Shown here: positions 2,911 through 63,947 of the stretch, piece by piece
Position numbering within the stretch: the first letter of the stretch is position 1
Layout: each line of letters opens with the position of its first letter
NCBI GenBank assembly: GCA_963751925.1
Contig: CAVVWJ010000002.1
Span: 1,702,560-1,766,559 of the forward strand
DNA: 64,000 bases
Reading direction: 5' to 3'
Origin: an uncultured Gemmatimonadales bacterium
Lineage (GTDB): Bacteria; Gemmatimonadota; Gemmatimonadetes; Gemmatimonadales; GWC2-71-9
Notes under the pieces: generated by a model
What the model saw: only the letters and a program-made list of their open reading frames with translations
What the model was told of the DNA's origin: nothing
Database searches by the model: none
Program-made: the position numbers and the translations under genes

Positions 2911-3509
2911 TTGATAGTGCCGGCGCGATGCCACGCCGTGAGATCCGCGAGTGTCTGTCGGACCGCGAGCGTCACCGCATGCGAGCTGATGGTTGCACCC
3001 GAGATGTTCCTGATGTCCTTGCCGACCGCGAGCGGCGCGGTGGAGGTCTTTCCACGGAACTGTTTGCGCCAGGGCTCGTACGCCACTTCTCCGCCGTGCG
3101 GCTCACGATACACCAGGATGTCGATATCCTTGAGCGCATCTGTCGAGTCGATCGCGACGAGGTAGGTGATCGGCTGGTCTTTGCCTTTGACGTTCCGGAC
3201 CCGGGCAAAGCCGAGCAGAGATCCGGCCTTGGAAATCCGGAGCACCGACGCTGTATCGACTTTGACGGTGTCCACCTGAACGCCCGCGCCGAAAATCCTT
3301 CCGATCGACTTGGCTACTTTGTCAGGGGGAGCGGTCTGCGCGGCCAGCGGTGCGAGGGACAACGTAAGAAGTGAGAAAGACAAGAGGTGAGAAGTGACAA
3401 GGCGAGCGTGGCGAGCGCGGAACGCCCGGCACAGCGTAGTCCCCCCAGCCACACAGCGTGAGGGTCGGCTGGCGTCAGACGAATGGAATTTGTCCCTCTC
3501 ACCTCTCAC
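2907..3509 (-). CDS. Secreted FMN-binding domain protein (NqrC/RnfG/NosR-type FMN_bind)
   Basis: C-terminal KDIRNISGATISSHAVT matches the ApbE flavinylation acceptor motif ([DN]xxSGAT[IL]S). Signal-like LLSFSLLTLSLAPLAAQ. Start uncertain (GTG 3509 or GTG about 3452). Confidence 0.7.
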   Translation of the reverse strand: MRGERDKFHSSDASRPSRCVAGGTTLCRAFRARHARLVTSHLLSFSLLTLSLAPLAAQTAPPDKVAKSIGRIFGAGVQVDTVKVDTASVLRISKAGSLLGFARVRNVKGKDQPITYLVAIDSTDALKDIDILVYREPHGGEVAYEPWRKQFRGKTSTAPLAVGKDIRNISGATISSHAVTLAVRQTLADLTAWHRAGTIK

Positions 3510-3540
3510 TTCTACCTCTCACCTTCTTCTCACTCTCACC
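3496..3540. repeat. Pyrimidine-rich tandem CTCTCAC heptad block between the porin stop and the FMN-binding gene
   Basis: ctctcac ctctcac ttctac ctctcac cttcttctcac tctcac. The complementary GTGAGAA/GGTGAGA words recur at 3364-3400. Confidence 0.6.
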
Positions 3541-3543
3541 TGC

Positions 3544-4671
3544 TCAGAACTGATACCCCACACCCAGGCTGGCCACATCCCTTTCGCCCAGTCCGGCACG
3601 GTTCCGTTGAAGCTGGTAATCGCCCTTGAATACCACATTGTAGAGCGGCTTGTAGGTAAGGCCAAATGTGGTGATCCGGCGCGCCAGGGCGTCATCGGCG
3701 ACAACCCCTGCGGGGACGCCGGCCTGAGTATCGTAGTTCTCATAACGGAGAAATGCATTCAGCCGCTGGGACGAAGCCGAGGCCAAGGAGGAGAGCACAT
3801 TGTATGCAGCCTCAACATAGCCGCCGGCAATCCGGCTGCCGACCTGCGTGCCATACGCCGCATTCACCGCCTCAGCATCACTCACGGTGATATTCGCCAG
3901 GACTCCGCGGAACATGAACGGTCCCACATCGTAACGGGCGTCGGCTGAGATGAGTGCGACCGCGTTGGCGAAGGACCCGCTGTCGAGCGCTCCGTCCTGG
4001 TTGGCGCTGCCACCGTACCAGAACGAGCCACCGACCCGGAGGCCCGGGCGAGCCCACTCGATCCGTCCAGTGACGGATGGGTTCGCAAAGCTGGCCTCCT
4101 TCCCCTCCTGCCGCCCACCCCTGATGCCGCTCACGGCGTCGAAACCTGAGGCTTTGAGGCCATTGACCAGGTACACCCGGTAGTTGAGCCCAGAGGAGCC
4201 TGGAATGGCTCCTACGAGACCCACCCCGATGTCACGCCAGGTGGTCGGAATGACGTCGTTGTCGAAGTTGGGCCGGGAGACTCCGTTGAACGTTGGAGGC
4301 TCGTGCACCTCATTCAGGATGCCGACCGGTGCGAGCAGAAGACCGGCACGGAGGGTAAAAGCGGGCGAAAAGGTGTAGTCCAGGTAGGCCTGTTCCAGGG
4401 CGACCTCCCCTCCTCCCTGGCCTCCCTCGACCTTGGTGTCTTCCACCTCGAGCTCGGAGCGGAGCGCCAGGTGCTCGCTGAAGCTATGGGCCACGTACAA
4501 CACGAATCGCTTCACCGTCACCTCACCGGGCGTGTTGGCGCCGGTGGCATTGGTATAGTGGACTTCACCGTACCCACCGATCGAAGTGCTCTCGGTTTCC
4601 TGGGCTAACAGAGATGTGAGTGGGAGGGTCATCAGGGCCAGCAACGGGAACCAACGGGGCCGTAGGCCCAT
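3544..4671 (-). CDS. Outer-membrane porin-like beta-barrel (phosphate-selective porin O/P-like)
   Basis: Signal MGLRPRWFPLLALMTLPLTSLLAQ. Alternating amphipathic strands. C-terminal ...SLGVGYQF with terminal Phe. Confidence 0.6.
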   Translation of the reverse strand: MGLRPRWFPLLALMTLPLTSLLAQETESTSIGGYGEVHYTNATGANTPGEVTVKRFVLYVAHSFSEHLALRSELEVEDTKVEGGQGGGEVALEQAYLDYTFSPAFTLRAGLLLAPVGILNEVHEPPTFNGVSRPNFDNDVIPTTWRDIGVGLVGAIPGSSGLNYRVYLVNGLKASGFDAVSGIRGGRQEGKEASFANPSVTGRIEWARPGLRVGGSFWYGGSANQDGALDSGSFANAVALISADARYDVGPFMFRGVLANITVSDAEAVNAAYGTQVGSRIAGGYVEAAYNVLSSLASASSQRLNAFLRYENYDTQAGVPAGVVADDALARRITTFGLTYKPLYNVVFKGDYQLQRNRAGLGERDVASLGVGYQF

Positions 4672-5730: not shown

Positions 5731-7980
5731 GTGTGCGTCGCCGTCAGCCGTGTGCTGGCTGACGCCCCCCTGCTCCCGGCGATGGCATTGCTGACTGCCG
5801 GTGCGGTCATCGTGGCACTCGCGCTCCGGAACCCACGGTGGGAGGTCCCCCTTCACGCTCTGGCGGCCGCTCTCCTCGGCATCCTGGCGGGCTGGGCGGC
5901 CAGCCGAGTCTGGTGGCTGGCCCTTGTGGCGGTGGGTGTCGTCGCCGCGACGTTATGGCTGGCCCGGATGGTCTCAGGCGATCGCCTGCGTGAAGCAGAA
6001 GACAAAGCCGAGCGACTCGCGGCACAGGTGGATCGCCGGATCAGCGAGCTCTTCTCACTGCGCGAGCTGAGTTACGTCCTCTCCGAATCGATTCAACTCG
6101 ATCGCATCGTCGAGCAGGTGGTTCGCTATACCTCCCGATTCGTGCCGGCCGATGGCGTCGTCCTGGTGCTCGCCGAGAGTGATGGCCGGGTCCTGCGAGT
6201 CGCTGCCGCCTCGGGAACGCTCGCTCCGCTACTGGGCCAGGTCAGCGAGGCGGCGGATGGGAGCCTGGTGCGAGTGGCGATCGAGCGGGACCGAATCGAG
6301 GTGCAACAGGGAGAGAGCAGTCCGGCCGTTCACCTCATTGCCGGCGTGAGCGTTCGTTCCGCCGCCGTGGCCCCGCTCAAGGCCCAGGGTATCACCATGG
6401 GCGCCCTCGCGCTGGCGGACCGCAACGAGGGCCCCTTTACCACCGAGGACCTCTGGCTCCTCTCAACCGTGGCGACCAATGCGTCGGTCGTCCTGGCCAA
6501 CAGCAGACTTTATGAGATGGTACGCCGGGGTGAAGAGGAGTGGGAGACTGCATTCGACGCACTCACAGAGGGGATCGCGGTGGTGGGAACGAATGGCGCC
6601 GTTCTGCGCGCCAACAAGGCGCTGGCCGGCCTTGCCGGTCTGGCCGAGTCCGACCTGGTAGGCCGGAACTTCTGCCAGACGCTGTTCGGCAGCTCAGAAG
6701 CAGTTTCGAGCCTGATCGAAGCCGCCCATCGTGGCGAACGGACCGTGCCGATGGTGGTCCGGCCCGACGAGAGTCACCAGGTACTCCGTCTCACTGCGGC
6801 GCCGCTGGCTGCGGCAGAACGTGGATCGGTGGTGATCCTGATCGAGGACGTCACCGAGCAGCGCGCGCTGGAGGCGCAGATCATCCAGAGCGACAAGATG
6901 GCATCGATCGGGCAGCTCGTATCCGGTGTCGCTCACGAGCTGAACAACCCGCTCACCTCGATCGCGGGACTATCCGAGCTCCTGCTGGAGCGGCCCCCAC
7001 ACCCGGAGTTCCCCCGGGAGCACCTCCGGGTCATCCACGACCAGGCGGAACGCGCCGGGCGAATCGTTCGAAACCTTCTGACCTTCGCCCGAAAAGGCGT
7101 CGCCGAGAAAACCGCGGTCGACCTCAACGATGTCGTCACCCGCACCTCTCTGCTCATCATGTATGAGCTCCAGCTCCACGGCATCGAGCTGGAATCCGAG
7201 CTCAGCTCTACGCCGCCGATAGTAGTGGGAGACCGATACGAGCTGCAGCAGGTGCTGCTGAACCTGGTGACCAATGCGGTTCAGGCGGTGAGCGGACTAC
7301 CGGCCGATGCGCCGAGGCGTATCACGCTGGCAACCAGCCACGCCGAGGACCGGGCAGTGTTGCTGGTACGGGACAATGGTCCTGGCGTTCCCAGGCATCT
7401 TGCGCCGTACCTGTTCACGCCGTTCTTCACCACCAAGGCGCCAGGTGAAGGTACCGGGCTGGGTCTGTCGGTCAGCTACGGTCTGGTGAAAGCGCACGAC
7501 GGCGATCTCTCGTATGAACCCTCAGCGGAGGGTGGCGCCGAGTTTCGCGTCACGCTCCCACTCTTCAGTGCAGAGCTGGCCGATCTTGTTGATCCGGTCG
7601 CCACCGAGAATGGTGGGCACGACCGGGGCCGAATCCTGGTCGTCGATGAAGACCCCGCGGTCCATCGAATGCTCAGCGCGTTGTTCGCTCCAGACGGCTA
7701 TCAGGTAGAGACGGTTCAGAGCGGTGAGCAGGCGCTGAAAATGGCGAGTGAGCGTGAGTACGATTTGATCATCGCGGACCGTCGGATGGGGGCAGGAGCA
7801 ACCGACCGGTTTACCCAGGTCCTGCTGAATTCCTGTCCCCACGTCCGCGATCGGCTGGTGGTAGCCTGCTCCCGAGACGAGGCCCTCTCCGCTGCGTCAG
7901 ACCAGCCGGCGGTCCGCACCGTGACCAAGCCGTTCAACCTGAGAGATCTGAGGTCGGTAGCGGGGGAAATTCTTCAGTAG
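5731..7980 (+). CDS. Hybrid sensor histidine kinase (TM, GAF-like, PAS, HisKA, HATPase, REC)
   Basis: H-box SGVAHELNNPLTSI; N box LVTNAVQA; G boxes DNGPGVP and GTGLGLS. C-terminal receiver ILVVDEDP...DLIIADRRM...TKPF. Start uncertain (GTG 5731 preceded by GGGGGAG; alternatives 5722 and 5782). Confidence 0.8.
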   Translation: MCVAVSRVLADAPLLPAMALLTAGAVIVALALRNPRWEVPLHALAAALLGILAGWAASRVWWLALVAVGVVAATLWLARMVSGDRLREAEDKAERLAAQVDRRISELFSLRELSYVLSESIQLDRIVEQVVRYTSRFVPADGVVLVLAESDGRVLRVAAASGTLAPLLGQVSEAADGSLVRVAIERDRIEVQQGESSPAVHLIAGVSVRSAAVAPLKAQGITMGALALADRNEGPFTTEDLWLLSTVATNASVVLANSRLYEMVRRGEEEWETAFDALTEGIAVVGTNGAVLRANKALAGLAGLAESDLVGRNFCQTLFGSSEAVSSLIEAAHRGERTVPMVVRPDESHQVLRLTAAPLAAAERGSVVILIEDVTEQRALEAQIIQSDKMASIGQLVSGVAHELNNPLTSIAGLSELLLERPPHPEFPREHLRVIHDQAERAGRIVRNLLTFARKGVAEKTAVDLNDVVTRTSLLIMYELQLHGIELESELSSTPPIVVGDRYELQQVLLNLVTNAVQAVSGLPADAPRRITLATSHAEDRAVLLVRDNGPGVPRHLAPYLFTPFFTTKAPGEGTGLGLSVSYGLVKAHDGDLSYEPSAEGGAEFRVTLPLFSAELADLVDPVATENGGHDRGRILVVDEDPAVHRMLSALFAPDGYQVETVQSGEQALKMASEREYDLIIADRRMGAGATDRFTQVLLNSCPHVRDRLVVACSRDEALSAASDQPAVRTVTKPFNLRDLRSVAGEILQ

Positions 7981-17976: not shown

Positions 17977-19478
17977 GCTCGACCTTCGAAAGCTTCGTTG
18001 AGCGCGCACAGGCGGGCGGCATGGTGCCAGTCACCCGTCAGGTCGTGCTGGACGGTGACACCCCCGTCACCGCCTTCACCAAGCTGCACCAGGGCTCCTA
18101 CGGTTTCTTGTTGGAATCGCTCGAAGGCGGTGAGCGCTGGGCCCGCTACACCTTTCTGGCCACAGATCCTCGTGAGGTGTTCCGCTATCGGGGGCGCGAG
18201 TGTGCCCGCTGGACCGAAAAGACCGGCTGGAAGGTCATCGAGACCGATGTCGCCCCGCTGGAGCACCTCGGACGGACGATGCGGCGGCACCCACCGGTCG
18301 AGGTTCCAGGCCTACCCCGGTTCACCGGTGGCGCCGTCGGCTATCTAGGATACGATGTCGTACGAACGATCGAGTCGCTTCCCAATGCCCCACCCGACGA
18401 CCGAGATCTCCCCGACGCGATTCTCATGGTGGCCGATACTCTGCTGGTTCTGGACAACCTCTTCAACCGTGCCACCGTCATCGCCAATGTAGAAGTTCCG
18501 GCGGGCGCGAGCCGGAAAAGCCTTCAGTATCTGTTTCAGGAGGCGGAGACCAGGATTGAGCGCTGGCTCGAGCGCCTGGCCAGACCGGCCACCAGTCCGC
18601 CGCTCGATCTCGAGCCGTTGCCACCGCTACCGACACCGTCGTGTACCTATCCCGATCACCGCTTTCAGGAAGATGTCGGTCGCATCAAAGAGTACATTGC
18701 GGCGGGAGACACCTTTCAGACGGTGCTCTCGCGCCGGCTCGACTTGGCGGCCCCAGACCCTTTTCTCACCTACCGCTATCTCCGGGCCCTGAATCCGGCA
18801 CCGTACCTGTACTTTCTCCACTGCGACGACATCCATGTCATCGGCAGCTCTCCGGAAGTACTGGTTCGCGTGGAAGAAGGCGAGATTACCCTGCGTCCGA
18901 TTGCCGGCACCCGTCCTCGCGGGCTCACCACGGAGCAGGATGCGGCACTGGCGGAAGAGCTGTCGGCCGATCCCAAGGAGCGGGCGGAGCATCTGATGCT
19001 GGTTGACCTTGGCCGGAACGATGTCGGACGAGTCGCGGCGTTTGGGTCGGTCCATCTGACCGCGTTCATGGCCATCGAGCGGTACTCGCATGTCATGCAC
19101 CTCGTGAGCGAAGTGCGGGGTCGCTTGCGCCCAGAACTGGATGCAATGGCTGCGCTCGGCGCATGCTTTCCCGCTGGAACGGTGTCGGGGGCACCCAAGG
19201 TTCGCGCGATGCAGATCATCGATGAATTGGAGCCGGTGAGGCGGGGGCCGTACGCCGGAGCCGTGGGGTACGTCGGCTTTGGGGCCCGTACGCTCGACGC
19301 GGCAATCGCGATCCGGACCTGCGTCATGAAGGGGGGCCGAGCCTGGATTCAGGCGGGTGCCGGGATCGTGGCGGACTCGGACCCGGCGTCGGAGTGGCGC
19401 GAGACAGAGGCCAAAGCTCGTGCCGTGCTCCTAGCGTTGGCCCTGGCGGAAAGGGCGGGAAAGGCGGCAAAGCACTAG
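17973..19478 (+). CDS. trpE: Anthranilate synthase component I TrpE
   Basis: LLESLEGGERWARYTF feedback motif, chorismate-binding core GTRPRG...LMLVDLGRNDVGR...GAVGYVGF...IQAGAGIVADSDP. Confidence 0.9.
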   Translation: MSSTFESFVERAQAGGMVPVTRQVVLDGDTPVTAFTKLHQGSYGFLLESLEGGERWARYTFLATDPREVFRYRGRECARWTEKTGWKVIETDVAPLEHLGRTMRRHPPVEVPGLPRFTGGAVGYLGYDVVRTIESLPNAPPDDRDLPDAILMVADTLLVLDNLFNRATVIANVEVPAGASRKSLQYLFQEAETRIERWLERLARPATSPPLDLEPLPPLPTPSCTYPDHRFQEDVGRIKEYIAAGDTFQTVLSRRLDLAAPDPFLTYRYLRALNPAPYLYFLHCDDIHVIGSSPEVLVRVEEGEITLRPIAGTRPRGLTTEQDAALAEELSADPKERAEHLMLVDLGRNDVGRVAAFGSVHLTAFMAIERYSHVMHLVSEVRGRLRPELDAMAALGACFPAGTVSGAPKVRAMQIIDELEPVRRGPYAGAVGYVGFGARTLDAAIAIRTCVMKGGRAWIQAGAGIVADSDPASEWRETEAKARAVLLALALAERAGKAAKH

Positions 19479-19510
19479 CTTCCTGCCCTTCCCGACATTC
19501 CCGACCCTTC
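19445..19510. terminator. Imperfect GGGAAAGG / CCTTCCC hairpin spanning the trpE stop codon
   Basis: ggcggaaagggcgggaaaggcggcaaagc-ACTA-gcttcctgcccttcccgacattcccgacccttcc. Arms are built from direct repeats of 9-10 nt. TAG lies in the loop. Confidence 0.4.
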
Positions 19511-19523
19511 CGATATTCACCTT

Positions 19524-38002: not shown

Positions 38003-38962
38003 TCAAGAGGATCCGGTGATCCGATCGAGCAACGCGAAGGCGAACACCGTCACCGACATGACCCCGTTCATCGTGAAGAACGCAGCATCTACCCGAGACA
38101 GGTCACCAGGGCGCACCAGGTGGTGTTCATAGGCGAGAATGGCTGTGGCCACCACCAGCCCGGAATAGTAGACGATGCCGAAGCCAGCGCCGTACCCGAA
38201 CAGGGCGAGTGCCGGGATGGTGATCCCGTGAAGCAGCTTGGCGAGTTGGATGGCGCGAGTCTCTCCCAGCTTCACCACGGCGCTACGAAGACCCTCCGCG
38301 GTGTCGAACCCGACATCCGGCAGGGCGTAGAAAATGTCGAACCCTGCCACCCAGGTTGCGACTGCCAATGTTATCGCGAGCAGCACCCAGGGTGGATCAC
38401 TCCAGGCGCCGGTGATCGCCAGGTACCCGCCCACCGGTGCAATGGCGAGACTAACGCCCAACCACAAGTGAGGCCACCAAGTGAACCGCTTCGACAGGCT
38501 GTACAAGAAGATCCAGCTCAGAGCGATCGGGCTGAGCGCCAGACAGAGCGGATTCAACAGATCGGCTGAGGCGAGGAATATCCCGGCGGCGATGATCACG
38601 GATATCCAGGCCTGCGCCAGCGACAGCCGCCCACCCGGCAGCTCCCGATTCAACGTGCGCGGATTCCTGGCATCGTAGTGCCGGTCTGCAATGCGATTGA
38701 ACCCCATCGCTGCCCAGCGAGCGGCAGAAAAGGCGAGCACGACCAGCGCGACGGCACGTGGAGTCACCCGGGTCATCCGGGATGCAGCCAGGACGCCGAG
38801 AAGCGCGAACGGCAAGGCGAAAAGGGTGTGCGGTAGCTTGACGAAGTTGACGTACCGGACGAGAAGCGACTCACCCGCGAACGTCTGGGCTTCGCGAGGG
38901 GGTAGAGCCTGCCCCGAGCCTTGCGAGGGTGCGGCAGGACGGGAAGGCAGTAAGTCACTCAT
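38003..38962 (-). CDS. ubiA: UbiA-family aromatic prenyltransferase
   Basis: About 8 TM helices. Asp-rich motif NRIADRHYDARNPRT. ATGA overlap with the ubiD stop. Confidence 0.8.
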   Translation of the reverse strand: MSDLLPSRPAAPSQGSGQALPPREAQTFAGESLLVRYVNFVKLPHTLFALPFALLGVLAASRMTRVTPRAVALVVLAFSAARWAAMGFNRIADRHYDARNPRTLNRELPGGRLSLAQAWISVIIAAGIFLASADLLNPLCLALSPIALSWIFLYSLSKRFTWWPHLWLGVSLAIAPVGGYLAITGAWSDPPWVLLAITLAVATWVAGFDIFYALPDVGFDTAEGLRSAVVKLGETRAIQLAKLLHGITIPALALFGYGAGFGIVYYSGLVVATAILAYEHHLVRPGDLSRVDAAFFTMNGVMSVTVFAFALLDRITGSS

Positions 38963-40482
38963 CGCCCGCGTCCTGGTACTGCCTTACCGCCTTCCCGCCT
39001 TTCCGCCAGCCCGATTCCAAGCTTATCCCACATCTCATCCACCCTCCTCTTAGTCTCCGCATCCATGGTGATCAGCTCGGGCCACTCCCGGTCGAACCCT
39101 TCCTCTTTCCATTTCCGGGTGGCGTCGATTCCCATCTTGCTGCCATAGGTGAAGGCACGGCTGGAGTGGTCGAGCACGTCAATTGGCCCCATGGTGAACC
39201 GCACGTCTCGCTCGGGGTCGATGTTGTTGAGGGCGACCCACCAGGCTTCGTCAGGGTCGCGGACGTTGACCTCCTTGTCCACCACCACGAGCACCTTGGC
39301 CAGCGACATCAGCCCCTGGCCCCAGAGCGCATTCATCACCTTGTAGGCCTGGCCCGGGTACTGCTTGTCGATCGACACGAAGACCAGGTTATGAAAGATG
39401 CCCGGAGCCGGCATATGGTAGTCCACGATCTCCGGCACAGTGAGCTTGAGCAGCGGAAGAAAAATGCGCTCGGTGGCGTGCCCTAGATAGAAGTCCTCCA
39501 TGGGCGGCCGGCCAACCAGAGTCGCCGGGTAGATCGGATCGCGACGGGAGGTCACTGCCGTGACATGGACCTTAGGATACAAATCCGCCAGGGAATAGAA
39601 TCCGGTGTGGTCGCCGAATGGCCCTTCCATGACCAGCGGCTCGGCGGGATCGATGTACCCCTCTAGCACCATCTCCGCCTCGGCCGGCACATCGAGGTCA
39701 CAGGTGACCGCGGGCGCAAGCTCGACCGGCGCTCGTCTGAGAAAACCGGCAAAGAGAAATTCGTCGATAGTGGGCGGCAGTGGGGCAGAGCCGGAATAGA
39801 TGCTGGCTGGGTCGCCACCCAAGGCGATTACGACCGGCATTCGTTCGCCCCTTGCCGCCATCTCGCGCCAGTGGGCGGCACCGACCTTGTGTCGCTGCCA
39901 GTGCATCGCGAGCGTGTTCCGGCCGAGGACCTGGACCCGGTACATGCCGACGTTCCGAATCCCTCGAGCAGGATCGGTGGTGATCACCATCGGCAGGGTG
40001 ATATATCGACCACCGTCGCCCGGCCAGGTCGTTAGAAACGGAATCTCGTCCAGGTTCACCGCGTCACCCCGGTGCACCAGCTCCTGACATGGAGGCCGGC
40101 CGCTCTTCACCTTGGGCGGAAACTTCCCAATCTCAGCCAGCTTCGGCAGCATGGCGAGTTTGGCAAAGAGTCCTTCCGGCACCTTGAGATTCAGCATCTC
40201 AGAAATCCGGCCACCCACTTCGTCCAGGTCCCCGACATCCAGCGCCAAACACATCCGGCGCATCGATCCGAACAGGTTGATCGCGACGGGCTGGGTGCTC
40301 CGGCTCCCGTTCTCCAGGAGGACGTGATCGAAGAGAAGCGCCGGACCTCCGCCAGGACTCTTCATGACCCGGTCGGCTATCTCCGAAATTTCGAGGCGCG
40401 CCTTGACGGGATGGCGCACCCGGACGAGCTCGCCGATGCCGTCAATCGCCTTGATGAAGTCGCGGAGGTTATCTAGCGGCAT
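38959..40482 (-). CDS. ubiD: UbiD-family (prenyl-FMN dependent) decarboxylase
   Basis: MPLDNLRDFIKAI..., YRVQVLGRNTLAMHWQRHK, GPFGDHTGFY. Start set to ATG 40482. Confidence 0.85.
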   Translation of the reverse strand: MPLDNLRDFIKAIDGIGELVRVRHPVKARLEISEIADRVMKSPGGGPALLFDHVLLENGSRSTQPVAINLFGSMRRMCLALDVGDLDEVGGRISEMLNLKVPEGLFAKLAMLPKLAEIGKFPPKVKSGRPPCQELVHRGDAVNLDEIPFLTTWPGDGGRYITLPMVITTDPARGIRNVGMYRVQVLGRNTLAMHWQRHKVGAAHWREMAARGERMPVVIALGGDPASIYSGSAPLPPTIDEFLFAGFLRRAPVELAPAVTCDLDVPAEAEMVLEGYIDPAEPLVMEGPFGDHTGFYSLADLYPKVHVTAVTSRRDPIYPATLVGRPPMEDFYLGHATERIFLPLLKLTVPEIVDYHMPAPGIFHNLVFVSIDKQYPGQAYKVMNALWGQGLMSLAKVLVVVDKEVNVRDPDEAWWVALNNIDPERDVRFTMGPIDVLDHSSRAFTYGSKMGIDATRKWKEEGFDREWPELITMDAETKRRVDEMWDKLGIGLAERREGGKAVPGRGR

Positions 40483-40495
40483 GGCTACACCAGCC

Positions 40496-40570
40496 GTCAA
40501 CAGTGAACAGTGAACCGTCAACGGGAGTTGAAACGACCCAGTCCTTCACCGTTTACCGTTCACTGTTGAC
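40496..40570. repeat. Heptad-built inverted repeat (GTSAACN x4 / TTYACYG x4) at the ubiE-ubiD junction
   Basis: 13-bp perfect arms GTCAACAGTGAAC (40496-40508) and GTTCACTGTTGAC (40558-40570). Each arm consists of tandem 7-mers. The right arm encodes the last residues of UbiE (..STVNGKR*). Confidence 0.75.
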
Positions 40571-41301
40571 GCCTTCGTCCTCGTCCCCAGGTACAGCGCA
40601 CATACGCCCCCCATCAGCAACTCGTAGCGGACCTCGTCGAATCCCTGCGTCCGCATGCGCGCGGCCAAAGCCGGCGGCTCGGGAAAGGCAATCGTGGACT
40701 CTGGTAGCCAGGTATAGGCGGTCGTATGTTTCGAGATCAGGCGGCCGATTCGAGGCAAGATACGTCGGAAGTAGAACTGGTACCCCGCGCGAAGCAGACG
40801 GGGCTTTGGGAGAGCCATTTCGAGGATCACGAATGTCGCGCCCGGCTTTAGAACTCGGGCCGCCTCTGCCAGGCCGGCGTCGAGGTCAGCCAGATTTCGA
40901 ACTCCCCATCCCACCATGGCTCCATCGAACGCGGCATCGGGAAATGGCAGCTCGAGAGCATCCGCGTTGACAGGAGCCAACCCCTCGGCCTTGCGGCGGC
41001 CGAGCTCCAGCATCGGCCGTACGAAATCTGCCCCTACTACGCGACCTCGGAACCCTGGCCGGGCGGCGAGCGTGGCCGCGAAGTCCAGGGTTCCGGCGCA
41101 GAGATCGAGGTAGATTCCCTCCGGCTCACGCTCCCAACCCAAACAGGCGACTGCATACCTTCTCCACACCTGGTCCAGCCGGAAGCTGATGATGCGGTTG
41201 AGACGGTCGTAGGTGGGAGCGATCGCGGTGAAGATCGAGCGGACGTAGGCCCTCTTTTCCGGACCGCCTGAAACAGGTAACTGACGATCCGAGGCTAACA
41301 T
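40546..41301 (-). CDS. ubiE: Demethylmenaquinone/ubiquinone C-methyltransferase UbiE/MenG
   Basis: VRSIFTAIAPTYDRLNRIISF, SAM motif YLDLCAGTLD, GWGVRNL. Confidence 0.85.
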   Translation of the reverse strand: MLASDRQLPVSGGPEKRAYVRSIFTAIAPTYDRLNRIISFRLDQVWRRYAVACLGWEREPEGIYLDLCAGTLDFAATLAARPGFRGRVVGADFVRPMLELGRRKAEGLAPVNADALELPFPDAAFDGAMVGWGVRNLADLDAGLAEAARVLKPGATFVILEMALPKPRLLRAGYQFYFRRILPRIGRLISKHTTAYTWLPESTIAFPEPPALAARMRTQGFDEVRYELLMGGVCALYLGTRTKASTVNGKR

Positions 41302-43878: not shown

Positions 43879-44721
43879 TTGCGCGCGACCGCCCTCTTGG
43901 CCGGCCTCACTCTCTGGTCGGCCGCCGCTTCCGCGCAGACAATGCGCCCGTTTACCACCTTCCGGCAGATGCACGGGGAGACTCGCCTGACAGCGCGGCT
44001 GGAGTACGCCGCCGGCAGCCTTCGGCTGGGCGCGGGCCGGCCCAACGAGCTGTACCGGATGGACCTCTCCTACGATCAGGATCGTTTCCTGCCGATCAGC
44101 GACTTCGATATTTCGAGCGCTACGGCTGTGCTCGGCCTCAAGGCGGAGGGCGTAGGCGGAGTACGTGTCATCTCTCGGCATCAGCTTCAGCAGGTCGCGG
44201 CGGTCACCATTTCGCCCCGGGTAGATCTGGCGCTCGACCTCACATTGGGCGCGACCGATGCCGATGTGGAGCTGGGTGGCCTAAGGCTGACCGACCTGGA
44301 CCTCAAGACCGGTGCGAGCCAGGCAGTAGTTCGATTCTCTCAGCCGAATAAGATCCGCTGCCGCCATGCAACCGTCAGCGCGGGGGCAGCAGAGATCTCG
44401 TTTCTCGGTTTGGGGAACAGCCGCTGCGACAGTTTCGATTTCGAAGGGGGAGTCGGCAAGATCACGCTCGATTTCGGGGGAAGCTGGAGTTCCAGTACCC
44501 GGGCGTCAGTGAAGATGGCGATGGGGGAATTGACACTCCGTTTGCCTCGACAAGCGGGGGTCCGCCTCACAATGGACAAGTTCCTCTCGCACTTCGACCC
44601 GGCGGGCCTCGTTCGTAGAGGCAATGAATTCGTCTCTCCAGGATATGCCAGCGCCGAGCGGCATCTCGACCTGGACCTCACGACGGCGGTGGGCGGCGTG
44701 AACGTCGAGTGGGTGGAATAA
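43879..44721 (+). CDS. Secreted repetitive beta-strand protein (DUF4097/toast-rack-like)
   Basis: TTG start 3 nt after the upstream stop. Signal LLAGLTLWSAAASAQ. Repeated units LDLTLGATDADVELGG / LDLKTGASQAVVRF / VSAGAAEISF / GGVGKITLDFGG / MAMGELTLRL. Confidence 0.45.
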   Translation: MRATALLAGLTLWSAAASAQTMRPFTTFRQMHGETRLTARLEYAAGSLRLGAGRPNELYRMDLSYDQDRFLPISDFDISSATAVLGLKAEGVGGVRVISRHQLQQVAAVTISPRVDLALDLTLGATDADVELGGLRLTDLDLKTGASQAVVRFSQPNKIRCRHATVSAGAAEISFLGLGNSRCDSFDFEGGVGKITLDFGGSWSSSTRASVKMAMGELTLRLPRQAGVRLTMDKFLSHFDPAGLVRRGNEFVSPGYASAERHLDLDLTTAVGGVNVEWVE

Positions 44722-44742
44722 GAAGAGAAGCTATGAAGCTGT

Positions 44743-44829
44743 GAGCTAGGAGCTAGGAGCTAGGAGCTAGGAGCTAGGAGTAGGGAGGAGCTAGGAGCTA
44801 GGGAGCTAGGAGCTAGGAGCTAGGAGCTA
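44743..44829. repeat. Tandem heptanucleotide array, about 12 copies of GAGCTAG
   Basis: Five perfect copies, a degenerate gagtagg-gag, two copies, an extra g, then three copies plus a partial one. Because the period is 7, TAG falls in all three frames on both strands. Confidence 0.9.
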
Positions 44830-44861
44830 ACCGCCGAATTTTGAGCACGGGGTTAGGGGCG

Positions 44862-44945
44862 TTCCCGCTGTTCTCTTCCCGCTTACCGCTTACGGTTTCC
44901 TCTCACCTCCCGCCTCCCTCTTACTTCTCCCCTCTCTCCTCTTAC
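44862..44945. repeat. Pyrimidine-rich heptad-periodic block (12 x 7 nt: TTCCCGC / TTACCGC / CTCTTAC words)
   Basis: ttcccgc tgttctc ttcccgc ttaccgc ttacggt ttcctct cacctcc cgcctcc ctcttac ttctccc ctctctc ctcttac. Ends 9 nt before the downstream ATG. Confidence 0.7.
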
Positions 44946-44954
44946 CTTCAAATC

Positions 44955-45575
44955 ATGTCACCGCTCGACACCCTGGGCTTCGCGCTCGGCACCTCGTTCG
45001 CTTCCGGGCTCAACCTTTACGCCACGGTAGCGGCGGCAGGACTGTTCCAGCGGTTGGGCATCGTTCAGCTCCCGGAATCATTGCAGGTCCTGGCCAATCC
45101 GATCGTCCTCGGCGTCGCCCTCACGCTGTTCCTCATTGAGTTCATTGCCGACAAGATCCCCTACATCGACAGCGCCTGGGACGCGGTTCACACGTTCATC
45201 CGGCCACCTGCCGCCGCTGTGCTCTCCTATAGTGCGTTCGGGCACGTACCCGAAGAGTGGAAGATCGGCGCGGCGTTGCTCGCCGGCGGAGTGGCCCTCA
45301 GCTCCCATGGTGCCAAGGCAACCACCCGCGCGGCCGTAAATGCCAGCCCCGAGCCGGTGAGCAACTGGACGTTGAGCATCCTGGAAGACGGATTCGCGGT
45401 GTTTTTGGCGTGGATGGCAGCGGCGCACCCGATACTGACGGCTGGAATCGTCGTCGTCCTGGTGATCCTGGCCGTTCTGGTGATCTGGAAGCTGTTTGGA
45501 TTCTTGCGCCGGGGAATGGCTCGGCTGCGAGGAGAAACGGCGAGACCGGCCGCGCCGGTTGGCCCACCAAGCTAG
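44955..45575 (+). CDS. Integral membrane protein (DUF4126-like)
   Basis: MSPLDTLGFALGTSFASGLNLYATV..., FIADKIPYIDSAWD. Several TM helices. The 44841 ORF extension runs through the repeat block and was rejected. Confidence 0.5.
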   Translation: MSPLDTLGFALGTSFASGLNLYATVAAAGLFQRLGIVQLPESLQVLANPIVLGVALTLFLIEFIADKIPYIDSAWDAVHTFIRPPAAAVLSYSAFGHVPEEWKIGAALLAGGVALSSHGAKATTRAAVNASPEPVSNWTLSILEDGFAVFLAWMAAAHPILTAGIVVVLVILAVLVIWKLFGFLRRGMARLRGETARPAAPVGPPS

Positions 45576-62414: not shown

Positions 62415-63666
62415 CCGGCCCGCTCGGCGCGGCCGAAGCTGCCACCAGAATTCTCGCCGATGTCCGACGGCAGCCCTCGCTTCGAATCCCACTGGATGAC
62501 GCTCTGGAAAGTGTGCTCGCGGAAGACATCGTGAGCCCGCTGGATATTCCTGCGTGGACCAACTCCGCCATGGATGGCTACGCCGCTCGGGGAGAAGACG
62601 TCGCGGGGCGCCTCCGAAGCCGAGCCGGTGCGACTCCGGGTGGTCGAGCATCTCCCGGCCGGGCACTTTCCCACCAGGCCCATTGGCCCGGGCGAGACCG
62701 CTCGCATCTTCACCGGCGCGCCGCTGCCGGAAGGTGCCGACAGTGTCATCCGTCAGGAGGATACCGACCTGGGCTCCGATACGGTCACGATCGTGAAGGA
62801 TCGCGACGTCGGCGTGAACATGCGGAACGTGGGCGAAGACATTCGGAAGGGAAGCACCGTTTTGAAGGCGGGTACCGAGCTGGGGCCCGCACAGCTGGGC
62901 GTGCTCGCCTCACTCGCGGTGGCGCACCCACTGGTATACCGCAGGCCCCGCGTCGCCATTCTCGGCAGCGGCGATGAGATCGTGGACGTGGATCAGACGG
63001 AAGAGATTTTGAGCGGCCGGAAGATCGCGAGCAGCAACACGCACACACTGGTCGCGCTGGTTCGCCAGGCTGGGGGCATGCCGGTCAACCTTGGTATCGC
63101 CGCCGATACCCCGGAGAGTCTTCGCCAGCACCTGGACGCGTGCCTTGGACTGTGATCTCCTGGTGACCACCGCCGGGATCAGTGTAGGCGAGCACGATTT
63201 CGTACGCTCGGTGCTGGAAGAGTTGGGCGCTGAGTTGAAGTTCTGGAAGCTTCGAATGCGACCTGGGGCACCGGTCGGTTTCGGGATTCTCGGCGAAATG
63301 CCATGGATCGGGCTGCCGGGAAATCCGGTGAGCACCATGGTCACCTTCGAGCTCTTCGTTCGGCCTGCCATCCGGAGGATGATGGGACATACCCTGCCGT
63401 TCCGCCGGACAGTACCGGTGCGGGTGGCGGAACCGATCACTCTCAAGCCAAAGCTGCAGCACTTTTTGCGGGGGATCGTCACGCCTTCGCCGACTGGACC
63501 CGAGGCACGCCTCACCGGGCCTCAGGGCTCGGGAATTCTCACCTCGATGGTGCATGCCAACGCGCTACTGATTATTCCGGAGGGTCAGCATGAGACGCGG
63601 CTAGGCACTTCGGTCGAGGCGCTGATTCTGAACGATCCGGTCCATCGAGAAGGTCCAGGTTTTTGA
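62411..63666 (+). pseudogene. moeA: Molybdopterin molybdenumtransferase MoeA, reading frame broken twice (+1, +1)
   Basis: Three consecutive ORFs in frames 2, 0 and 1 together give a collinear MoeA. 62411-: ...NSAMDGYAARGEDVAG. 62574-: ASEAEPVRLRVVEHLPAG...TGAPLPEGADSV...ILGSGDE. 63091-: ALDCDLLVTTAGISVGEHDF...WKLRMRPGAP...GLPGNPVS. Shift sites are near the G4 run 62605-62608 and near 63135-63141. Confidence 0.8.
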
Positions 63667-63669
63667 GAA

Positions 63670-63764
63670 GAGTCGAGGGTCTAGAGTCGAGAGTCTAGAG
63701 TCACGAAATCGACCAAACACCCTTGACCCTCGACCCTCGACCCTGGACCCTAGACTCTCGACTC
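63670..63764. repeat. Heptad-built inverted repeat (GAGTCNA x5 / GACCCTN x6) between convergent genes
   Basis: gagtcga gggtcta gagtcga gagtcta gagtcac ... gaccctc gaccctc gaccctg gacccta gactctc gactcc. 15-bp perfect complement: 63684-63698 with 63750-63764. Confidence 0.8.
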
Positions 63765-63947
63765 CTACCTATCCTCGCTCACGTGCTTTCCGGTCTTACC
63801 GCGCCGGCGCACCGCTTTCTCTAATGACTCCGATTCTGAGTTTCCTTGCTTCCGTCCGCGGCCCGTAGCCCCGGGCTGTTTTGGCTGGCGGGTCCGCTCC
63901 TGGCGACCTTCCTTATGACTGCCCATACCGCTGTTGGCGTCCGGCAT
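63765..63947 (-). CDS. Small, highly basic hydrophilic protein (60 aa), unknown function
   Basis: ATG 63947 is preceded by GGAGGGAGG at Shine-Dalgarno distance. MPDANSGMGSHKEGRQERTRQPKQPGATGRGRKQGNSE...GKHVSEDR. Confidence 0.45.
   Translation of the reverse strand: MPDANSGMGSHKEGRQERTRQPKQPGATGRGRKQGNSESESLEKAVRRRGKTGKHVSEDR

Follow-up and report, generated by a model that had tools for sequence, protein, structure and literature searches.

A heptanucleotide-repeat spacer upstream of a DUF4126 gene, probably a decayed copy of a hairpin element common in Gemmatimonadales

Two heptad blocks between an ECF-sigma cluster and a DUF4126 gene

We analyzed a 233-nucleotide (nt) spacer built largely of tandem 7-nt units in a 64,000-nt stretch from an uncultured Gemmatimonadales bacterium (contig CAVVWJ010000002.1 of assembly GCA_963751925.1). 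The whole stretch is called the window here, and positions refer to it unless a locus is named. The spacer (44722-44954) lies between the TAA stop codon (44719-44721, + strand) of a gene for a 280-amino-acid (aa) protein (43879-44721) and the ATG at 44955 of a gene for a DUF4126 membrane protein (44955-45575, + strand; Pfam PF13548, E 5e-55). The stop was placed from the list of open reading frames (ORFs) and from the calls of a codon-usage log-likelihood caller, which gave 93% coding sequence and start sites that are approximate; a caller based on a threshold of GC content at third codon positions (GC3) was dropped because it gave just 66%. The 280-aa gene is the last of a cluster that includes an extracytoplasmic function (ECF) sigma factor gene, and the C-terminus of its product matches the Pfam family LiaF-like_C weakly (E 0.0012, short of the curated cutoff); we refer to it and its orthologs as LiaF-like. 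Orthologs of DUF4126 are conserved at the N-terminus from the ATG at 44955, which identifies this codon as the true start. No Rfam family matched anywhere in the window at gathering thresholds, and ARAGORN found no tRNA or tmRNA in it.

The left part of the spacer begins with an edge of 8-nt proto-repeats (44722-44742, + strand; GAAGCTAT, GAAGCTGT), for which Tandem Repeats Finder (TRF) reports a period of 8 at 44727-44748. It continues into the strongest tandem repeat that TRF finds in the window, an array of GAGCTAG heptads (44743-44829, + strand) that starts 21 nt past the upstream TAA. The TRF score of 137, with period 7, 12.9 copies and 90% matches, agrees with a preliminary description of the locus, made from the letters alone, which had counted about 12 copies and two small interruptions. 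Read directly, the array holds five, two and four perfect units plus a partial one, interrupted by GAGTAGGGAG and by an extra G. The block is 74% purine, and its lag-7 autocorrelation, measured as identity and compared with shuffles, reaches 0.85 (z 11.2). Stop codons fall in all six frames, as previously noted, with two to five in each. The CTAG tetramer contained in the unit is indeed rare in the window, where it occurs 47 times against 216 expected from base composition (~4.6-fold under-represented) and 73 from a Markov model; 10 of the 47, a fifth, are inside the array. The tetramer TTAA is also nearly absent from the window (1-64000), with 3 occurrences against 74 expected by composition and 11 by the Markov model.

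Neither strand of the window carries another GAGCTAG-like array, and the only one among the 160 related loci surveyed below is a (CTAGCTC)x2 in locus L137. Three unrelated viral contigs of the IMG/VR collection (45-61% GC) contain four to five tandem GAGCTAG units (L161, 2215-2235; L162, 1419-1439; L163, 3662-3682) without a partner pyrimidine array, and in L162 and L163 these units adjoin other CTAG-containing heptads (GGTCTAG, GGGCTAG). A viral or mobile origin of the GAGCTAG arrays was considered and set aside, three contigs without the partner array being uninformative.

A 32-nt non-repetitive linker (44830-44861, + strand; no significant periodicity) separates the GAGCTAG array from a second, pyrimidine-rich block (44862-44945). 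The 7-nt periodicity that the preliminary description had seen in this block is real and degenerate. Its lag-7 identity is 0.64 against 0.38 in shuffled sequence (z 5.2; 0 of 2000 shuffles equal), lag 14 gives a z of 3.0 and other lags are not raised; TRF recovers just 2.7 copies of CTTACCG (44875-44893), and the block is far more degenerate than the GAGCTAG array. The block is a composite of a first sub-block of TTCCCGC/TTACCGC-type (TTMCCGC) heptads (44862-44895, + strand), with CCGCTTA units at the corresponding place in three contigs of sister lineages (L168-L170), and a second sub-block of CTCTCAC/CTCTTAC-type (CTCTYAC) heptads (44896-44942, + strand, with units to 44945). Over its 84 nt the block is 49% C, 8% G and 6% A, with 14% purine. 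The excess of C over G reaches its window maximum at 44896, making the block the most extreme C>G stretch in the 64 kb, and a 55-nt tract (44896-44950) keeps pyrimidine at 87% or more in each 30-nt segment, as only one other tract of the window does. The block ends, as described before, 9 nt ahead of the DUF4126 ATG. It has no stop codon in the three + frames, and for this reason the mechanical ORF of DUF4126 is over-extended to a TTG at 44841 and runs through the block (44841-44954). This is a warning for annotation, since ORF callers extend genes systematically through the stop-free pyrimidine arms of this clade, as the 44841 start exemplifies.

A repeat-hairpin family in Gemmatimonadales

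Searches with the DUF4126 protein as query provided 80 genome loci (65-85% identity, nearly all labelled Gemmatimonadales) and 80 metagenome loci (L001-L160), which were pooled with the window into 1.14 Mb of sequence. A LiaF-like gene precedes DUF4126 in almost all of the 160 loci. Both gene ends could be placed in 118 of them; the spacer measures 30 nt or less, without any array, in 50 of these, 31-60 nt in 25 and more than 60 nt in 43, and the 233 nt of the window make its spacer the second longest. The long orthologous spacers consist of a purine-rich tandem array after the stop codon, a loop, and a reverse-complementary pyrimidine-rich array that reaches to within a few nt of the start codon. 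The units are 7 nt long, sometimes 8 nt, and vary from genome to genome: GTGAGAG/CTCTCAC in L003 and L008, GCGGTAA/TTACCGC in L036, GAACGGG/CCCGTTC in L040, GAGAGTT/AACTCTC in L044, GCTATCG/CGATAGC in L010, AAGCGTG/CACGCTT in L117 and GAGCTRA/TYAGCTC in L080. The preliminary description had called for a search for further tandem heptads, and in the 160 loci such a search reveals a family.

In the pooled sequence, arrays of at least three copies number 127 for period 7, against 31, 55 and 45 for periods 6, 8 and 9. More than half of the period-7 arrays fall outside called ORFs, though only ~8% of the DNA does, and their purine content is bimodal. Adjacent arrays (period 7, 8, 14, 16 or 21, at most 160 nt apart) form 73 pairs, and in all 73 the purine-rich array comes first and the pyrimidine-rich one second, with no pair in the reverse order. 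The same order is obtained on whichever strand the pair is read, and the polarity is therefore real; in terms of genes, purine arms follow stop codons and pyrimidine arms precede start codons. The best-register ungapped Watson-Crick complementarity of the two arms has a median of 89% and is at least 80% in 65 of the 73 pairs, compared with 59% for mismatched partners. We also compared the minimum free energy (MFE) of the RNA with that of dinucleotide shuffles. Representative elements form hairpins with z-scores of -5 to -12 on both strands, and among the 59 orthologous spacers that reach 45 nt, 27 show a z of -3 or below. At least one gene 3' end adjoins 60 of the 62 elements that could be classified, 52 of which lie between tandem, 8 between convergent and 2 between divergent genes (background 771, 179 and 114).

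The spacer of the window belongs to this family by position and homology, and it lacks the pairing. Its tandem 7-nt units start within ~25 nt of a stop codon, at a position that 7-nt or 8-nt units also occupy in orthologous spacers; its purine-rich array precedes its pyrimidine-rich one; and one of its arms, the pyrimidine array, is homologous to elements at the orthologous site. What it does not have is a pair of reverse-complementary arms forming a stable hairpin. Imperfect pairing of the two blocks had been suggested in the preliminary description, along with a fold of the spacer as RNA, and neither measure bears the suggestion out. The arms are complementary at 53-55% of positions, less than in any other of the 73 pairs and no better than mismatched partners. 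The 233 nt fold with an MFE of -83 kcal/mol against a mean of -93.9 for their shuffles (z +2.2), 199 of 200 shuffles match or surpass its stability, the opposite strand has a z of +2.0, and the z-score is the worst of the 59 orthologous spacers. A consensus scan of the spacer detected no canonical intrinsic terminator, and no run of T follows the pyrimidine block. We conclude that the spacer is probably a remodelled, decayed copy of a hairpin element common in Gemmatimonadales, in which a younger GAGCTAG array stands in place of the 5' arm.

The window contains six repeat elements, the spacer and at least five others. A well-formed one, (GAGTCGA/GAGTCTA)n, loop and (GACCCTC/GACCCTA)n at 63669-63767, follows the stop codon of a + strand gene ending at 63666 and folds as RNA with z-scores of -5.1 (+ strand) and -5.9 (- strand); arrays akin to it (GGTCTAG/CCTCGAC) occur in L003, L033 and L054. 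Four more have the purine-then-pyrimidine order: a GTGAGAA/CCTCTCA heptad hairpin (3350-3546), a 9-mer hairpin of GGCGGAAAG/CTTCCCGMC (19445-19511) whose purine arm lies inside the 3' end of a gene ending at 19478, an 8-mer hairpin around TACCGCCT (38931-39006) whose arms flank an ATGA stop/start overlap, and an AACAGTG/CCGTTCA heptad hairpin (40492-40574). Two of these four overlap called ORF ends. The loops of several heptad hairpins hold a further inverted repeat, rich in GC and of the 'gtcatcctgagcgaagcgaagg...' type (L008 ~5905-5950, L128 ~1730-1840, and the spacers upstream of 6001 in L021 and L031), which looks like a separate small repeat family nested in the elements.

Several candidate properties were rejected as a common basis of the units. 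A stop codon in every unit cannot be the unifying trait, as GGGGAAC and GGCGGAAC have none. Mimicry of the Shine-Dalgarno (SD) and anti-SD sequences of Gemmatimonadetes (GAGGTGA and UCACCUC; PMC10783764) fits some units and not others (GAACGGG, GTGAACA, GCTATCG), and a G-quadruplex basis was rejected because of the units without G-tracts. Units within a genome are somewhat more alike than units between genomes (mean rotation distance 1.64 vs 2.42; permutation p 0.016, 11 pairs). A genome-specific unit read by a trans-acting factor was nonetheless not adopted as an explanation, since the window alone has at least five different units.

History of the spacer and turnover of its units

The genome and metagenome scans with the DUF4126 protein contained no relative above 87% identity, and exact-sequence look-ups of the DUF4126, Mrp/ParA and SAM_HAT proteins of the window returned no record. 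Closer relatives came from a large protein collection: an identical DUF4126 protein on a 2.54-Mb contig, presumably the source contig, one identical at 205 of 206 positions and several that are 98-99% identical. The gene order of the window (ECF sigma, 202 aa, 428 aa, 280 aa, spacer, DUF4126) is kept in relatives. Spacer lengths among those with a DUF4126 at least 98% identical are 176, 183, 186, 192, 212, 219 and, in the window, 233 nt, the 205/206-identical relative having 186 nt against the 233 of the window. The most proximal ~40 nt of the spacer are conserved among the relatives, not variable. DNA was available for seven contigs of sister lineages (L164-L170), whose flanking DNA is ~90-93% identical to the window at the nucleotide level.

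None of these seven contigs contains a GAGCTAG unit. Their left block is an AGCT-rich, ~8-nt-periodic array (GAGCTATG, GAGCTGTG, GCTATTAG) that shares its left edge with the window (GAAGAGAAGCTATGAAGCTGTGAGCTA...), the stretch 44722-44742 being the portion of the left block common to both, and that is not complementary to the pyrimidine array. The spacers of the sister lineages fold with z-scores of -1.2 to -2.6, leaving the pyrimidine array largely unpaired. The GAGCTAG block is thus shown, as far as the aligned contigs go, to be young and lineage-specific. Most simply, it would have arisen by loss of one base in an 8-mer and subsequent amplification to ~13 copies in the lineage of the window only, and a complementary 5' arm would already have been lost in the ancestor of the species group to which the window belongs.

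The pyrimidine array appears to be older. Its gene-proximal units (~44909-44945) align, with invariant columns, with the 3' arms of the hairpins at the orthologous site in L003, L004, L008, L081, L086, L089 and L128, where the partner arm consists of GTGAGAG/GTAAGAG and not of GAGCTAG. By this alignment the array is homologous to the 3' arm of the orthologous hairpins and would represent the ancestral arm. It is kept without a partner arm, at 11-17 units, in the sister lineages. Pyrimidine-only heptad arrays are also found directly upstream of DUF4126 in L063 (1482-1530), L066 (5946-5995) and L136 (upstream of 3001); these arrays (e.g., TCCCACT x7) have no purine partner and fold with an MFE close to 0. 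A pyrimidine arm can thus stand on its own, which is the case in the species group of the window and in these three loci.

Changes by whole units are seen between nearly identical contigs. The pyrimidine arrays of L165 and L166, contigs with 99.25% identity over 2.9 kb, are exactly one 7-nt unit apart in length, and so are those of L169 and L170 (99.1% identical). In a different genus, two separate elements show indels of about two units, one of them exactly 14 nt, between L128 and L132 (97.4% identical). The preliminary description had predicted copy-number variation of the arrays and had regarded them as substrates for slipped-strand mispairing. The first is demonstrated at this locus for the pyrimidine block, and the one-heptad differences support the second, slippage being the mechanism that we infer from these whole-unit indels. 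Whole elements come and go as well between genomes that are 92-95% identical: L089 and L012 have a complete element where L011 and L088 have just TGAcATG. In L011 (~1140-1153) and L088 (~1512-1525) a single nucleotide separates the LiaF-like stop from the DUF4126 start and there is no -10 box, which suggests a coupled operon. In L089 (2190-2305), a 112-nt heptad element and a TAGCTT box lie between the two genes. Judging from these sequences, gain or loss of the element may accompany a switch in the mode of expression of the downstream gene.

Possible function and relation to known heptamer repeats

Leaderless mRNAs have a known signature, a -10 box as far from the start codon as it would be from a transcript start. 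A -10-like hexamer, TACCTT (44943-44948, + strand), starts 12 nt before the ATG of DUF4126 with a 6-nt gap between them; this putative promoter element is merged with the last heptad, lies downstream of both arrays and occupies the modal position for the presumed leaderless starts of the clade. A TANNNT hexamer starts at -14 to -11 in 108 of 142 DUF4126 orthologs (TAGCTT, TACCTT, TAGATT, TAAATT), and most of the remaining ones have a GGAG-type SD sequence instead. The same peak is found at 78 of 756 other called starts in the window and L001-L160, over a background of 1-2 per position; 76 of the 78 are ATG, and the consensus of the signature is TAnnTT-N6-ATG. A scan of the spacer for consensus sigma-70 promoters found nothing. 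We infer that the DUF4126 mRNA is leaderless, with TACCTT as its -10 box, and the recurrence of the signature indicates that many starts in the clade, and hence many Gemmatimonadales mRNAs, are probably leaderless as well. A published survey puts SD use in Gemmatimonadetes at just 22% (PMC10783764). With a leaderless start at TACCTT, both arrays would be outside the DUF4126 mRNA and their copy number would not affect the geometry between -10 box and start codon, so the earlier proposal that unit number alters the spacing of signals upstream of the gene is unlikely to hold. The spacer does share copy-number polymorphism with contingency loci, directly in the pyrimidine block and, as the lengths of 186 and 233 nt imply, in the spacer as a whole; but its arrays lie upstream of the presumed -10 box and outside ORFs, with no effect on reading frame or on -35/-10 spacing.

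We propose that the stop-proximal purine array, loop and reverse-complement array of a typical family element form a long hairpin in RNA or in a DNA strand. In the lineage of the window, an AGCT-rich array would have taken the place of the complementary 5' arm, and one of its variant units, GAGCTAG, would recently have been amplified by replication slippage, and as a result the two blocks no longer pair; the pyrimidine array would be the ancestral 3' arm, still present and still changing by whole heptads. The effect of such a spacer could be to separate the ECF-sigma/LiaF-like transcription unit from a leaderless DUF4126 unit. Typical members would do so through a hairpin at the upstream 3' end, and the copy in the window only through an unpaired, C-rich and G-poor tract of ~85 nt that resembles a loading site for Rho. 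A transcript of the upstream operon would run into a purine-rich stretch closed in all frames and then into a largely unstructured C-rich tract. Unstructured RNA rich in C and poor in G has the textbook composition for Rho loading, and the pyrimidine block, with the C and G contents given above, its window maximum of C over G and its largely unpaired state in the sister-lineage folds, resembles a Rho-utilization (rut) site in composition. Read-through RNA with an internal AUG lacking an SD sequence would be untranslated and hence Rho-sensitive. The terminator or insulator idea of the preliminary description would fit the genomic position of the spacer, and an insulating role of some kind for this copy seems possible to us, if doubtful; the sequence and copy number of the units are probably near-neutral. 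By analogy with known 3'-end palindromes, the most plausible target of the family hairpins, placed after stop codons of tandem or convergent genes, is the 3' end of the upstream RNA, where they would act through partial termination or protection against 3' exonucleases.

Three observations weigh against this interpretation. Elements are only weakly depleted between divergent genes (2 against ~6.6 expected), which is suggestive at most, the sites not being independent. No U-tract follows the pyrimidine arms across the family, where the downstream T fraction is 0.2-0.3, and the family hairpins are for this reason not canonical intrinsic terminators. Finally, the pyrimidine array persists without a partner throughout the species group of the window and in L063, L066 and L136, which could point to a function of its own. 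Such a function, as a Rho-loading site in RNA or as a promoter-upstream or protein-binding array in DNA that tunes DUF4126 by the number of its units, is the alternative that survives best, and we rate it as unlikely. It would account for the array being the most extreme C>G stretch in the 64 kb, for its persistence at 11-17 units in all sister lineages, and for its whole-unit variation next to a -10 box in contigs that are 99% identical. However, the 50 orthologous spacers of 30 nt or less have no array, which makes the array dispensable, and the repeats are not situated between -35 and -10, where copy number acts directly.

That the spacer and the whole family are a functionless by-product of neutral slippage is less probable still and would be a poor bet. 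The presence or absence of entire elements between genomes 92-95% identical and the free divergence of unit sequences between genomes are what neutrality would produce, and heptanucleotides are the most abundant long simple sequence repeats of many bacterial species, an abundance attributed to slippage (PMC4679880; PMC4692102). Neutral slippage leaves unexplained, however, the 73-to-0 order of purine and pyrimidine arrays, the arm complementarity kept across different units, the recurrence at the same intercistronic positions and the matching architecture in Xanthomonas. A functional, if imperfect, RNA hairpin of the two blocks, acting as a terminator or insulator after the ECF-sigma cluster, is very improbable. 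The MFE fold does pair both blocks, and the majority of the family are strong hairpins adjoining gene 3' ends; but the shuffles fold better on either strand, the arms are no more complementary than mismatched partners, the U-tract is absent, and the sister lineages also lack a complementary left arm. An assembly artefact or collapsed repeat, to which tandem repeats are prone, can practically be dismissed for an array of only 87 nt in a contig of apparently 2.54 Mb, in a spacer whose architecture recurs with varying copy number in at least eight independent metagenome contigs and across 160 loci of many assemblies.

Several kinds of known repeats resemble the spacer and its family. The REP (repetitive extragenic palindromic) sequences and BIMEs (bacterial interspersed mosaic elements) of enterobacteria and pseudomonads are imperfect palindromes that abound in the short intergenic and intercistronic gaps at the 3' ends of genes. 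Their sequences are specific to the species, they are individually dispensable, and they stabilise mRNA 3' ends or serve as partial terminators. This is the most plausible mode of action for the Gemmatimonadales family; the copy in the window is itself without a palindrome. REPs have at their 5' side a GTAG-type motif that is linked to RAYT transposases, are not tandem heptads and follow no purine-to-pyrimidine polarity rule. The short tandemly repeated repetitive (STRR) sequences of Calothrix and Anabaena were reportedly described as short tandem heptanucleotides by Mazel and colleagues in 1990. STRR units of heterocystous cyanobacteria include CCCCAGT, TTGGTCA and CAACAGT. In Nostoc PCC 7120, GGGGAYT forms intergenic tandem heptamers in many copies, of unknown function and with few inverted pairs (PMC4692102). 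The comparison with STRRs made in the preliminary description is apt as to format; the cyanobacterial heptamers have other units, belong to unrelated low-GC genomes and lack the paired architecture, whereas the unit here is GAGCTAG and the host one of the Gemmatimonadales. The TAACTGA heptamers of Beggiatoaceae are intergenic arrays directly upstream of start codons that contain stops in the forward orientation (PMC4679880). They have a single conserved unit in 2-6 copies, inverted in 1 of 170 sets, and a proposed translational role (PMC4679880); they differ from our elements in having no hairpin of purine and pyrimidine arms.

The closest likeness is to Xanthomonas (65% GC), whose genomes each carry ~180 GGGAATC arrays, with 70-75 arranged in inverted pairs (Rehm et al. 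2015, PMC4692102). These contradict the earlier impression that heptad arrays are not known from GC-rich lineages. The arrays are ~90% intergenic, start a few nt past the upstream ORF and are often intercistronic, as in groES-groEL, atpA-atpG, atpD-atpC and gltD-gltB; their length varies between related species while the position is kept (PMC4692102). In all of the seven pairs examined from Table A of that paper, a purine-rich array on the plus strand is followed, after a gap of 21-67 nt, by an array on the minus strand (PMC4692102). GC-rich genomes, tandem heptads, inverted pairs and purine-to-pyrimidine polarity are thus common to both groups. The Xanthomonas repeat is essentially a single unit with a G-tract, interpreted as G-quadruplex-forming, whereas the Gemmatimonadales have many units, mostly without G-tracts (GTGAGAG, GAGCTAG, GCGGTAA), and G-quadruplexes therefore cannot be the common basis; this argues for hairpin and polarity as the shared property. 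The spacer of the window itself matches in polarity and in its 32-nt gap, but GAGCTAG has no GGG, which occurs at the two interruptions only, and the second block consists of other units rather than an inverted copy of the same one.

Our literature search found no paper describing these elements in Gemmatimonadota. We regard the spacer as a hypervariable repeat spacer in which intergenic heptameric repeats and their inverted pairs are known features, and the many units that do not form G-quadruplexes and the decayed copy are new ones. A more far-reaching idea, which we hold to be quite unlikely, is that purine-first heptad palindromes are a general device for 3' ends and insulation in GC-rich bacteria without U-tract terminators, and that the bare C-rich arm of the window took over as a Rho entry site. 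If this were true, the polarity would be mechanistic: the weak hybrid of pyrimidine RNA with purine DNA in the 3' arm, formed as the hairpin zips, would substitute for a U-tract and do so bidirectionally. Construction from heptads would let slippage tune the length of the stem, and the device would span Gemmatimonadales, with many units, and Xanthomonas, with one.

In many bacteria no long simple repeats are more abundant than the heptanucleotides (Mrazek et al. 2007, cited in both PMC4679880 and PMC4692102). Over-represented as they are in many bacterial genomes, they prove to be dense in a soil phylum rich in uncultured members, at six elements in 64 kb. The many unit types, together with gain, loss and decay at orthologous sites, offer a comparative handle for distinguishing terminators, RNA stabilisers and neutral slippage. 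The single locus studied here is a decaying copy; the regularities of its family, namely the 73-to-0 polarity, the covariation of the arms and the turnover of elements, make the old question of the heptamers more tractable.

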